63,625 nt of DNA, filler included, from Collodictyon triciliatum (GCA_043381765.1; 6 parts of 6 records of this genome joined end to end with filler, not necessarily neighbours in it), one strand, 5' to 3'. Counted from the first letter of the whole stretch, positions 114 through 4,449 are shown. The notes: a model not told the origin generated them from the sequence alone. Made by a program: numbers and translations.

Positions 114-3100
114 ATGTCGGAATTGGACTTCTTGGACTCGAACCGAACACAACTTAATCGCCTGCGATCTTCCCACTTGGAAATGATCGCGTCCACACAG
201 CGGTGTTTGAGATTCCTTGATCGCATTGAGGTTTTTTTTCCTTTCTGGCTGCTGATGGATCACTTATGTAGATCAGTATTTTACTTGTTCATAGTTCTTT
301 TTATATGATTTCTTGTTTTCTTTTTAAGAAAATATAAAAACAATACAACAGAATACAATAGAATACACCAATAAATATCAGAAAAAAAGGGAAAAAACCA
401 AAAAAATGCATGTATATATATTCAAACATTCGAAACAAATCAACTATTTCGAAACTATGCCAATGCTATACAACCCCATATTATTCATCATATTCACATC
501 ATAATTACACAGGTAATTCAAAAGGGCATTGAGGAGGTTAAAAGAGTCCGAGGTAATATTAAAACATCACACCGCTACAGCCTAGCAATTATGCGCGATC
601 AGTTATCAGATGCAGAAGAAGTTTGGAAGAACTACTTTGGTGAAAACTGGATTTCTTGGTGGTGGCAGCGAGGATTCGAGAAAGACTTTTGGAAGGAAAT
701 AGGAGACTCATTTCCGCGAGCCTTGTCTTACTCCGGACTTTCGTTAGATCCGAAGGTTTGCCTTAAAGCGTTTTTACTCTTGACTTTATCATTTCCAGCC
801 AATCAATCTCTCCGAATATTAATGATTCAAATGTCGCCTTATTATGCTACTCTGATATGTTTAAGTCGTGTATATATGGACTATATACATACTGTTCATC
901 TTCCCCAGATTGAAAGGGACAAATAAAAATAATTACATATAATGATTATGATGATTATGATGATTATGATGATAATGAAATCTATTAGTCTCATTAACCG
1001 TAATAATAACCCCCCCCCCCCCTCCCTTTGGTTGTTTTTCTTTAGATATTCAGTTCAATTTATACTTAAAAAGTAATTGAAGAGGCCATATAATAAGAAT
1101 AATACCTTATATATTTAACTGCTTTGTATCCTATTTATTGGTGTGGTGATGGAACGACAGAAATTCCCTGACCATGGAGAGGATGACCAAGATCAGCAAT
1201 ATGATGACAACACATATTTCACACTATACAAAAATATGATTGACAGTGTATGTCCAACATCCTTTATTTAATATCGAAACGCACATATATGTACTTCTTT
1301 CATCGCAGCGTCATATAACTTTTTCTGTGCATTTCTTTCCTTTTCTTTCCTTTTCTATCCTTTTCTATCCTTTTCTATCCTTTTCTATCCTTTTCTATCC
1401 TTTTCTATCCTTTTCTATCCTTTTCTATCCTTTTCTATCCTTTTCTTTTATTAAAAAATGCAATTCTTCTGTCCAAAAATATACAGCTTCAAGATTGCAT
1501 CATAGAAAGTACCAAACCTTTACCATCAAGTGTCAAAATAATGATGAAGCTAATTGAAGATAAACCTCAACCCGTTCATTATGCAAAATTATCGAAAGAA
1601 TTTGTCCGAATATTGGACGAGGTAAACCTATTCTCGCATATGGAATTCCTTTTACTCCTATTCATAATACTTACATGTTTATCATAACAGTAAAAACAAT
1701 TTTAATTGTAATAATTTTGATAATCATTACATCTATAACACATCAGATCAGATTGCTCTGTCAACGGATTGAAAGCCAGCGAAGTGGCATTATTAAACAG
1801 GATGCAACCTTTCCTGATTTTTTATTATTGCAAAAAAAGGACTTGTGCAATCTTCAGGAGGTCTCTTTTACTTTTTCATTTATATTTCTTTCCATAAGAC
1901 TATGTTTTTTTTACATAAGCCAATTAGTATCCTTCACACATTCTTTCTCACGCCAACTACGCGTATTCATTTCTCCTTTCTATTTTTTTTATTTCGCAGC
2001 TCAATTGCACTCCTTGGTGGACTACATACAAATGCAATATGAAAAAATATACGGCATGCATAAAGAACGTCAACACATCACTAATGTCACCGAAGATATA
2101 TGAAGGATTTGCAAATGAAGTTCTCGTATGATATTCTTCAATTGATTACTAAATCCAATATCATAATGATTTATTTTGTGGAATTATGGGGTTCTAAAGG
2201 CTGTGAAATTGATTTTGAAAAGCTCACCATACTATTTTCTAGCGTCTGTCAATTCTTAGACATCCAAACTTAATTACTCTCCTTGGGGTTGTTACAGACA
2301 GCAATATACTGCTTGTATATGAATGGATGTCTGACCGAAGTTTATTTGATCTTATCTACTCCCGTCGAGTATGTATTTTTTTGTGAATAAACTTTGAAAA
2401 ATCAGCTCGAAAGTTGTCTATTTTATTCTCACTAACCTTTTCTCTTTTTTTTCTTCGCTTCATTTGGAAATAGTACACCAAATGTTTCAAATGAAAAACT
2501 AATTACTCATTCTCAAATATTCAGACCTCTCTTTCATGGTTTGACCGGGCAGACATATCCATGCAAGTTATACAAGGAATACAATTTTTGCATAACTTAC
2601 AGCCTCCTATCGCTCATGGATATTTGAAAAGTTCCAATGTATTGTTGCAAGGAAAATGGAGAGTATGTTGAAGTATACGAACTATGTTCTATTTATGCAA
2701 ATACATTTATTACTGCAAGCATAAATATATAGCTTTTCTTTTCTTTTCTTTTCGATTTACTATTTTTTATTTTATTATGCTATTTTGTAGTTACATATCG
2801 TAAGCTTCATGAATTCATATTGGTGTTGATAGGTGAAGCTGACGGACTTTGGAATGGTGTCACCCAGGAAAGAGATTACAAATCTTAACCAAGAGAATGG
2901 TATACATTCGATGGAGCATATGTTATACTGGCAACCACCTGAAATGGTGTTGGGTAAATCAAAGAATCCACAGCCGAAGCACGATATTTATAGCTTTGGC
3001 GTTATCTTATGGGAGCTCACAACTGGAAAAGTAAATCATTTTGACCATAATGTATCCATACTCATGTACAATAAAAAAAATAATCAAATAAGCAATTTCT

Positions 3101-4449
3101 GTGGTACCTTCTTAAACTACTTGAACCTACCCACTACAAAGCAATGTGATAGTTCTGTTGTATTATATACATACAATAACATCTCAGTCCAGCTTCTCTA
3201 TAATCATATGTAGACACCTTTTGGAGGTATGTCGAAGGAGCAAATCAAGTCCATATTTATGTCTGGAAAGTTTGCGTCCATGCCACCAATTTTTGTACAG
3301 GATGCACCCGATGGGTGGAGTTCTCTCATGGATTTGTGCTTAACAAACGATCCAGAATATCGCCCGACATCTGAGTATGTGGAACCCAAGTTGCAGAAAA
3401 TCCATCAAGCGCTTCATCAGGACTTGAGGGACCAAGAGTACGAATACAGGAAGGCGTTGCATTCCCTGGCTTCCGGGCACTATGAACAAACTCTTGAGCA
3501 TCTCGAGCAATGTTTTCGTAAACAATCAGATTATCTGGCTGCCTCCCTCCTGATGAGATTGTTATTCTTCTGTCGACCCTCATTGGCCGACAAGAGAGGA
3601 GGAACCATCGAATTTTCCACCAACCTTGGCCACATCCTTTCGACTCTGACAAAAGGTGTCAGAATACAATGCATGAATGTCATAATTAGTGATTATGAAA
3701 AAGCAACAGAGACTGAAAAAACGGATGCTACGAAACTGACGCGCCTCCATGTGCTTGCCATGACAGTCTACGGTTCATATCTAGATGTGGTCGAGAAAAA
3801 GTCTTCTGAGGCAAAGACTGTGCTTGAAAATAGCAGCCGCAAAGGAGACCCAATCGCCGCCCATCTTCTCGGGCTGCTCTTTATTTCAGAGTATGAAGAG
3901 TGCCATGACTACTCAAAGGCTTTTGAGTGCTTCATGAAAGGGATGCGAGGCTCTGTGGTTGAGTCTCTCACACACCTCGCATACTGTTTCTACCACGGAC
4001 TAGGCTCTCGTCTCGACCGCACAGAGTCCTTCTCTCTGTATCTCCAGGCTGCGGAGAAGGGAGACCCAAATGCACAGTGCGCACTCGGTTGCATGTATTG
4101 GAACCCGCCCGACGGGATTCCTCGGAACGGAATCGAGGCGCTTCAATGGCTTCAGAAGGCCGCCGGCCAAGGACACCCGCAAGCAAAGCAAAATGCTGCA
4201 TTATGCAGACTTCGACTGGCCGCGAAGGAGTCATCGTCCACCACCAACATTACTGATTCACTGCGTCTCTCTTCTCTCACCCGCACAAATACTTCTGAAC
4301 CCCAGCGCTCGGTGAGGGGGCAGTCTATGACCCGGTCTTTGTCAAACTCACAGCTGCATTCACGCGGATCTAAAATGGCCCAGCCAGTGCAAAGCCTTCG
4401 TGCATCTTCTCCATCTGAGCATCGAGTACACAGACCGTCATGGAGATAA
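114..4449 (+). CDS. MLKL-like N-terminal helical bundle + TKL-type pseudokinase + Sel1-like repeats (multi-exon)
   Basis: In-phase GT-AG exons at about 114-230, 513-755, 1161-1247, 1487-1621, 1748-1860, 2000-2126, 2243-2368, 2525-2662, 2833-3030, 3214-4449. Kinase motifs ACIK, FANEV, LRHPNL, HGYLKSSNVLL, VKLTDFG, DIYSFGVILWE, DPEYRPT. Sel1 repeats such as AAEKGDPNAQCALGCMY and ALQWLQKAAGQGHPQA. Confidence 0.85.
1350..1441. repeat. (CTTTTCTATC)n tandem repeat in an intron
   Basis: About 9 copies of a 10-bp unit, read directly. Confidence 0.9.

Follow-up and report, generated by a model that had tools for sequence, protein, structure and literature searches.

In a 63,625-nucleotide stretch of Collodictyon triciliatum DNA (GCA_043381765.1; six parts of six records joined end to end with filler, hereafter the window), positions 114–4449 of the plus strand hold a ten-exon gene that encodes a protein of 839 amino acids. 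The gene is real and spliced, and its product combines a helical N-terminus, a dead kinase domain and C-terminal Sel1 repeats. This architecture is probably a variant, in a protist, of the MLKL-type layout of helical bundle, linker and pseudokinase, with membership of the MLKL family itself unproven. Taken as a whole, the reading of an expressed protein that follows the MLKL plan and carries a repeat module in addition is, in our judgement, an evenly balanced call.

The ten exons join into one open frame of 839 codons with its sole stop at the end, and all nine introns run from GT to AG in phase 0, with a GC fraction of 0.25–0.31 against 0.45 in the exons. We compared positions 1–5000 of the window with three public runs (X1, X2 and X3), none of which is on record as RNA; intron-less contigs were read as cDNA, because the loose ends of the X2 contigs resemble a template-switch oligo. 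Predicted introns were skipped exactly at their GT..AG sites in nine of nine cases by X1 contigs and in three of nine by X2, with none skipped in X3, which matches only the 10-bp microsatellite of intron 3. The X1 contigs thereby bear out the proposal of the initial annotation that the N-terminal exons are spliced to the kinase exons. The short side of the X1 joints measures 52 letters between exons 1 and 2 and 24 between exons 2 and 3, the latter below the 31-letter minimum applied to joints. There is independent support for both junctions, since the protein runs collinear and gap-free across them with an ortholog from Diphylleia rotans. The N-terminal reading quoted in the initial annotation, including its exon at 1161–1247, is present in the sequence, but exon 2 extends three codons further than was given there (…SLDPK, to 755).

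The ortholog, P0017 (EukProt EP00002 P027581, 842 amino acids), comes from a flagellate that its source's name places among the CRuMs and belongs to a cluster of five isoforms of one transcriptome gene in EukProt (P0014, P0016, P0017, P0018 and P0019). It is collinear with the Collodictyon protein from end to end (305 of 840 positions identical, 36%; 20 gaps), and because it aligns with the whole spliced protein it supports every exon junction as well as the conservation of the architecture. Identity by part was 39% in the bundle, 29% in the linker, 38% in the kinase, 31% in the TPR-like repeats, 50% in the Sel1 repeats and 30% in the tail, which makes the Sel1 repeats the best conserved part and leaves the bundle conserved to the same degree as the kinase. 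The two proteins share length, domain order, loss of the HRD Asp (HGQ in P0017), a Trp cluster, Sel1 repeats and a Ser-rich tail; P0017 differs in coming from another organism and in a glycine loop that is only partly degenerate, and it is unannotated and unstudied. Tests on the N-terminal domain as a whole (Pfam, AlphaFold and neighbour search) were made on the Diphylleia ortholog, and the window's own N-terminus was examined as separate exons. Some short exon rows were left out of the MAFFT alignments, namely exons 3 and 5 in one and exons 1 and 3–7, together with the kinase–Sel1 protein P0013, in another.

The bundle-like domain is encoded by two exons. Exon 1 (114–230, residues 1–39; X1 joint 230/513), which aligns with P0017 residues 1–38, holds the start codon and the first helix or helices and is net basic, as are residues 1–60 in both species. 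Exon 2 (513–755, residues 40–120) supplies the remainder, with an AIMRDQL motif and a W-I-x-W-W-W cluster (WWW codons 657–665) marked by invariant columns; this conserved cluster lies in the turn that joins helices three and four, which low-confidence AlphaFold models of P0017 place, after helices at about 3–19 and 21–51, at about 58–91 and 95–112. Exon 3 (1161–1247, residues 121–149) encodes an acidic linker and a first, 'brace'-like linker helix, exon 4 (1487–1621, residues 150–194) a helical linker and exon 5 (1747–1860, residues 195–232) the final linker helix and the lead-in to the kinase. All three are supported by X1 joints and by collinearity with P0017, whose models are helical across the exon 4 region and show, again at low confidence, four more helices after the acidic gap (122–131, 136–155, 163–173 and 186–210). 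The helical region of ~230 amino acids that had been anticipated ahead of the kinase is thus predicted to be all-helical in the ortholog. The acidic 'brace' proposed for the same segment resembles one in composition only.

Two weak signals point from this helical region to MLKL. A language-model neighbour search with P0017 residues 1–125 against Pfam-named clusters returned MLKL_N (PF22215), MCAfunc/DUF7792 or RPW8 in eight of the ten rows shown, and all ten of the best family-bearing matches share a family or clan; most clusters come from plants, and those bearing RPW8 (PF05659) are among the lower matches (0.84–0.87). Scores ranged from 0.82 to 0.89, with the top three at 0.89, 0.89 and 0.88 (171, 174 and 167 of 256 shared features), and values below 0.9 count as a lead only, from statistics that are not calibrated for parts of proteins. 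Likewise, a Pfam scan of ortholog residues 1–230 at E<=10 listed two families only, FTO_CTD (E=0.037) and MLKL_N (E=0.059), the latter aligning residues 23–130 almost gap-free with profile positions 18–124 of 142. The MLKL_N match carries weight because the family had been named in advance and because the neighbour search, in which no family was named, converged on it. We therefore favour, with some reserve, the view that the N-terminus is a genuine MLKL_N/RPW8-type bundle.

Besides the low neighbour scores, a number of results weigh against that view. The MLKL_N match, at 13.3 bits, falls far short of the family cut-off (27) and is equalled by FTO_CTD, a helical family with no relation to it; taken alone it is at noise level. 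MLKL_N was not found on whole P0014 or P0017 (Pfam, E<=1), nor on window exons 1 and 2, and across the five N-terminal window exons no Pfam family appeared at E<=1 other than DUF5858 on exon 2 (E=0.28). Exon 2 alone, when used in the neighbour search, retrieved bacterial clusters alone, all of them unrelated and none scoring above 0.84. AlphaFold gave a mean predicted local distance difference test (pLDDT) of 39.0 for ortholog residues 1–230 and below 50 for the same region in the full-length run (46.3 overall, with the kinase also unfolded), and a Foldseek search with the model of 1–230, which produced five matches with a best E of 4.9, is void at a pLDDT of 39. A search of PDB chains with an N-terminal profile gave three matches, all at E>=1.3 and none of them MLKL, HET-s, an RPW8-type protein or a plant MLKL. 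Nor was a cell-death partner gene present among the 10 other open reading frames (ORFs) of the window that were scanned. A two-copy complex prediction for the ortholog N-terminus scored 0.00 against a mark of 0.32, and weighs neither way.

The initial annotation had also named HeLo-like and RPW8 profiles for comparison. The HeLo (PF14479), Helo_like_N (PF17111) and RPW8 (PF05659) profiles gave no match at E<=10 to the ortholog N-terminus or the window exons and none at E<=1 to whole P0014 or P0017, so that membership of the HeLo, HeLo-like or RPW8 families is not seen by family profile. PF14479 is named in PMC8778642. What stands of the MLKL-type bundle that had been proposed is accordingly the sub-threshold PF22215 match and the neighbour clusters below 0.9, set against an FTO_CTD score that is just as good.

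The distribution of the N-terminal domain bears on the same question. A HMMER pass with exon 2 (81 amino acids) over 1.84 billion representatives returned two proteins at E<=0.001. One is the Diphylleia isoform P0014 (E=4e-13, 40% identity, residues 40–117); the other, P0015, a PKD/BppU-like protein of 4876 amino acids matched in 28 stretches (E=6.7e-4), was set aside as a repeat artefact. No match to exon 2 was found among longer proteins in a word-indexed collection, residues 1–228 of P0014 retrieved only P0014 itself among proteins of near length, and metagenome contigs scanned for the two best-conserved peptides of the two-row alignment yielded 595 pattern matches, none of them a relative. 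By these searches the domain appears to be nearly an orphan, with one credible relative among the 1.84 billion representatives. Exon 10, when compared with longer proteins, gave 13 matches, all driven by Sel1 and two of them with a kinase; the kinase–Sel1 proteins P0008 and P0013 begin straight at the kinase, without such an N-terminus. Within the window, neither the spliced protein nor P0017 had a tblastn match outside the gene at E<3, and no paralog was found.

An alternative that these results could fit is that the N-terminal 230 residues have no relation to MLKL and form a helical domain particular to the lineage, for instance one for dimerisation or docking. The protein would then be an ordinary RAF/KSR-style pseudokinase scaffold for signalling, which would gather partners by way of this N-terminus and the Sel1/TPR solenoid and do no membrane damage. 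KSR is a RAF-family pseudokinase scaffold, and the kinase domain described here is itself most like RAF: the best PDB matches of the P0017 kinase are C-Raf (E=4.1e-28), followed by B-Raf and A-Raf (~1e-24), and those of the window kinase exons are B-Raf, a LysM receptor-like kinase, IRAK1, TNNI3K and RIPK2. Of the 912, 91 and 73 PDB matches obtained with the P0017 kinase and the window exons, the best 60 in each case do not include MLKL, a further point against an MLKL-type protein. No specific relation to MLKL pseudokinases is thus apparent among the best 60 matches listed, and the likeness of the kinase to MLKL that had been supposed gives way to RAF, IRAK and RIPK2 as nearest among them. 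Also in keeping with a scaffold are the lack of any family at Pfam threshold on the N-terminus, where FTO_CTD matches the MLKL_N score, the lack of fold support for an MLKL bundle from the low-pLDDT AlphaFold models and Foldseek, the existence of P0008 and P0013, and a count of one relative in 1.84 billion representatives and none in the metagenome contigs scanned, as would be expected of a young lineage-specific domain. It is, however, harder to reconcile with a neighbour search that fell on the MLKL_N/MCAfunc/RPW8 group in eight of the ten rows shown rather than on assorted helical families, with the pre-named Pfam family being one of the two listed, and with a domain order and domain lengths that fit the MLKL plan. 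We consider the scaffold possible but doubtful.

The kinase domain itself has lost catalytic residues. Exon 6 (2000–2125, residues 233–274) encodes the N-lobe with a degenerate glycine loop, a VAIK-type Lys (residue 254) and the alpha-C Glu; exon 7 (2243–2368, residues 275–316; joints in X1 and X2 contigs) the remaining N-lobe and hinge; exon 8 (2525–2662, residues 317–362) the catalytic loop, with HGY (codons 2615–2623) in place of HRD; exon 9 (2833–3030, residues 363–428) DFG (codons 2845–2853), the activation segment and a P-P-E motif; and the first part of exon 10 (3214–3429, residues 429–500) the end of the C-lobe, assigned by collinearity with P0017. Residues 233–486 of P0017 match Pfam PK_Tyr_Ser-Thr (E=5.8e-37), an above-threshold match that, together with TKL kinases as the best PDB matches, places the domain in the protein kinase superfamily, tyrosine kinase-like (TKL) group. 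Among the window exons taken alone, exon 9 exceeds the Pkinase cut-off (E=2.5e-8; 34.1 bits against 31.7), exons 7 (E=3.8e-4) and 8 (E=7.2e-4) are sub-threshold and exon 6 has no Pfam match; the best PDB match of exon 8 is a LysM receptor-like kinase (E=3.8e-7) and that of exon 9 is B-Raf (E=9.5e-6).

HMMER aligned the window H-G-Y with H-G-D of IRAK1 and H-R-D of TNNI3K, and H-G-Q of P0017 with H-R-D of C-Raf. Neither species therefore has the catalytic base, the Asp having given way to Tyr in the window protein and to Gln in the ortholog. All three glycines of the window glycine loop are also lost, as read from the alignment of the window with P0017 together with that of P0017 with C-Raf, and P0017 is degenerate there only in part. 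A pseudokinase is usually defined as a kinase-like domain that lacks residues for catalysis, and the present domain, which like that of the MLKL family is without residues for phosphoryl transfer, conforms to this; the pseudokinase assignment of the initial annotation holds on both the HRD Asp and the glycine loop. The sequence marks the domain as a generic RAF-like TKL pseudokinase. Both species keep the VAIK-type Lys (VAVK in P0017), the alpha-C Glu, DFG and, in the catalytic loop, the Lys and Asn, which suggests that the domain still binds nucleotide and that selection maintains this. The same retention would speak for a kinase still active through a non-canonical arrangement, the protein then being a Sel1-regulated kinase rather than a conformational switch, whatever its N-terminus is; we consider this improbable, given that the catalytic Asp is replaced differently in the two species, leaving no conserved substitute base at that position, and that the window protein lacks all three glycine-loop glycines.

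The rest of exon 10 (3214–4449 in full) encodes a repeat module and tail. Residues 501–640 (3430–3849) are TPR-like helical repeats, with a weak Pfam TPR_20 match (E=0.0012), and residues 641–765 (3850–4224) are Sel1 repeats, for which Pfam Sel1 (PF08238) matched exon 10 in two stretches at E=1.7e-16 (60.4 bits against a cut-off of 30.7), in agreement with the C-terminal Sel1 repeats first annotated. When P0017 was modelled at full length with AlphaFold, a pLDDT of 50–87 was reached at residues 480–775 only, and a Foldseek search of the PDB with this model gave 19 matches at E<=0.001 (best E=7.5e-6), the best 11 and most of the others being Sel1/TPR-type repeat proteins, among them LceB, c5321, HcpC and SEL1L. 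The repeats are thus modelled as forming an alpha-solenoid. The last 74 residues (766–839; 4225–4449, with the TAA stop at 4447–4449) contain 19 Ser, 7 Thr and 10 Arg and are unstructured in the ortholog model, where the equivalent tail has a pLDDT of ~30. Profile and model together show a C-terminus made of a Sel1/TPR solenoid and, behind it, a Ser-rich and probably disordered tail.

The contigs also delimit the transcript. One X1 contig carries 20 unmatched letters ahead of position 109 that contain an in-frame TAA (read by eye) and are absent from the window at <=3 mismatches; they are probably an upstream exon of the 5' untranslated region (UTR) beyond the window start, or a trans-spliced leader, joined at a probable 3' splice acceptor (AG 109–110), so that positions 109–113 on the plus strand would be the end of the 5' UTR. 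ATG 114 is taken as the start codon because of this upstream in-frame TAA and because P0017 starts at the same Met. At the other end, X1 and X2 contigs both stop at 4476, 27 nucleotides past the stop codon, which gives a short 3' UTR (4450–4476). The two sets of contigs share four differences from the window (2945 T>C, 2966 A>C, 3312 T>C and 3360 T>C), two of them non-synonymous (M400T and N407T) and two synonymous, most simply explained as strain or allele variation. That the gene is an artefact of chance frames stitched together, or a dead pseudogene, was rejected as having practically no probability, since all nine exon pairs are joined at GT..AG in intron-less contigs, the exons all read in one frame closed by a single terminal stop, and a protist ortholog aligns across the whole 839 amino acids, and nothing was found in favour of an artefact. 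The region also carries microsatellites, with a 9-bp unit repeated 4.6 times in intron 2 (938–978), a 10-bp unit repeated 12.6 times in intron 3 (1321–1446) and AAT-rich arrays past the 3' end (4496–4641).

If the N-terminus is of MLKL_N/RPW8 type, the protein would be a cytosolic chain in which a helical bundle of ~115 amino acids, probably of this 'HeLo' type, is followed by a helical linker of ~115 amino acids that opens acidic, a RAF-like TKL pseudokinase with its nucleotide-binding residues kept and its catalytic base lost, the TPR/Sel1 solenoid and the Ser-rich disordered tail. The MLKLs of animals and plants suggest, by analogy, a closed, auto-inhibited resting state in which pseudokinase and linker would hold the bundle. 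Either a partner bound at the Sel1 solenoid, which may act as a sensor, or phosphate groups added to the activation segment or to the Ser-rich tail would switch the pseudokinase, and release of the basic, Trp-tipped bundle could then lead to self-association and membrane engagement, with a stress, immune or death response as output. Membrane or cell-death activity of this kind is conceivable, though we would put it somewhat short of an even call. The fullest version of the proposal is that a unicellular flagellate of a deep-branching protist lineage carries sensor (Sel1/TPR), switch (nucleotide-binding pseudokinase) and membrane-permeabilising executioner (a HeLo/MLKL_N bundle with its Trp-tipped hairpin) on one chain for regulated necrosis or cell-autonomous immunity, as a third independent MLKL assembly after those of animals and plants or as an ancestral eukaryotic relic; this we think unlikely.

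Animal MLKL is the executioner of necroptosis, with a two-helix brace and a modified DFG. The Collodictyon protein resembles it in the order of an N-terminal helical bundle of ~115 amino acids, a helical linker and a TKL-group pseudokinase without the catalytic Asp, a likeness that lies in this order, in the sub-threshold PF22215 match and in the neighbour-search clusters; in contrast, there is no significant sequence or fold match between them, the kinase domain is nearer to RAF and keeps DFG, a TPR/Sel1 solenoid and tail of ~340 amino acids are added, and no RIPK3-type partner is known. RAF-family TKL kinases, the best PDB matches of the kinase domain as searched with P0017, differ from it in being active, in their Ras-binding and C1 N-termini and in lacking Sel1 repeats. 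The plant MLKLs (AtMLKL1–3), as described in an excerpt of 10.1101/681015, have a HeLo bundle, a multi-helix brace (five helices in AtMLKL3), a pseudokinase and a C-terminal Ser-rich region; the excerpt states that they were detected only through comparison of hidden Markov models with one another, and its authors hold plant and animal MLKLs to be probably convergent. On that description the window protein follows the plant order through the pseudokinase and the Ser-rich region, whereas the plant proteins are without a Sel1/TPR solenoid. Because plant and animal MLKLs are probably convergent according to this source, shared architecture is no proof of common descent here.

A combination of kinase and Sel1 repeats has a fungal counterpart, as had been suggested. 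An excerpt of PMC8778642 describes, in Glomeromycotina, kinase homologs of the 'MLKL family' (TCDB 1.A.105) with Sel1 repeats; these resemble the window protein in joining an MLKL-family-like kinase to Sel1. MLKL and SEL1 also occur among the domain labels of bacterial symbiont effectors in a figure legend of a preprint (bioRxiv 10.64898/2026.04.11.717937), and a 2024 survey (PMC11476962) gives MLKL homologs, executioners in which a pseudokinase restrains a HeLo bundle, as known in metazoans, fungi and plants and calls their origin unclear. Full-text searches of the literature found neither a free-living protist with a reported MLKL-type protein nor a paper naming PF22215. Should the N-terminus be a HeLo/MLKL_N bundle, the gene and its Diphylleia ortholog would put a bundle–pseudokinase protein in a lineage outside animals, fungi and plants, with a built-in Sel1 module that could be its sensor, and would make it tractable to test two possibilities, that regulated death or defence by membrane damage is older than multicellularity or that this architecture has been invented again and again. 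Should it turn out otherwise, the gene would simply join a helical domain of orphan type to a RAF-like pseudokinase scaffold, and be of modest interest.

Elsewhere in the window, a convergent neighbour gene on the minus strand (4834–6245) encodes an NHL-repeat six-bladed beta-propeller (Pfam NHL E=5.6e-10, DUF5128 E=4.7e-10), and a loose run of T before 4834 in a contig marks its poly(A) end, ~360 nucleotides from the end of the pseudokinase transcript. Runs of N, which are assembly gaps, lie at 6381–6390, 7442–7506, 11832–11931, 20826–21235, 23737–23836, 31905–32004, 43812–43911, 53405–53933 and 55718–55817, none of them within the pseudokinase gene, and several consist of paired 44-base blocks. 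Neither Rfam families nor tRNA genes were detected when the window was scanned for them. An ORF of 199 amino acids on the plus strand (38678–39277) contains a string, HEDLKSSN, that resembles a kinase catalytic loop; the resemblance is probably due to chance, as the ORF has no Pfam family at E<=0.001 and no tblastn match to the pseudokinase. An ORF piece at 19051–19668 (plus strand) matches peptidase M28 (E=1.2e-7). Two further plus-strand pieces, at 26252–26956 and 27431–27946, carry the trichohyalin-plectin-homology (TPH) domain (E=6.3e-23 and 6.5e-14), which occurs in cilia- and flagella-associated proteins, and are probably exons of one gene, whose presence fits a flagellate.

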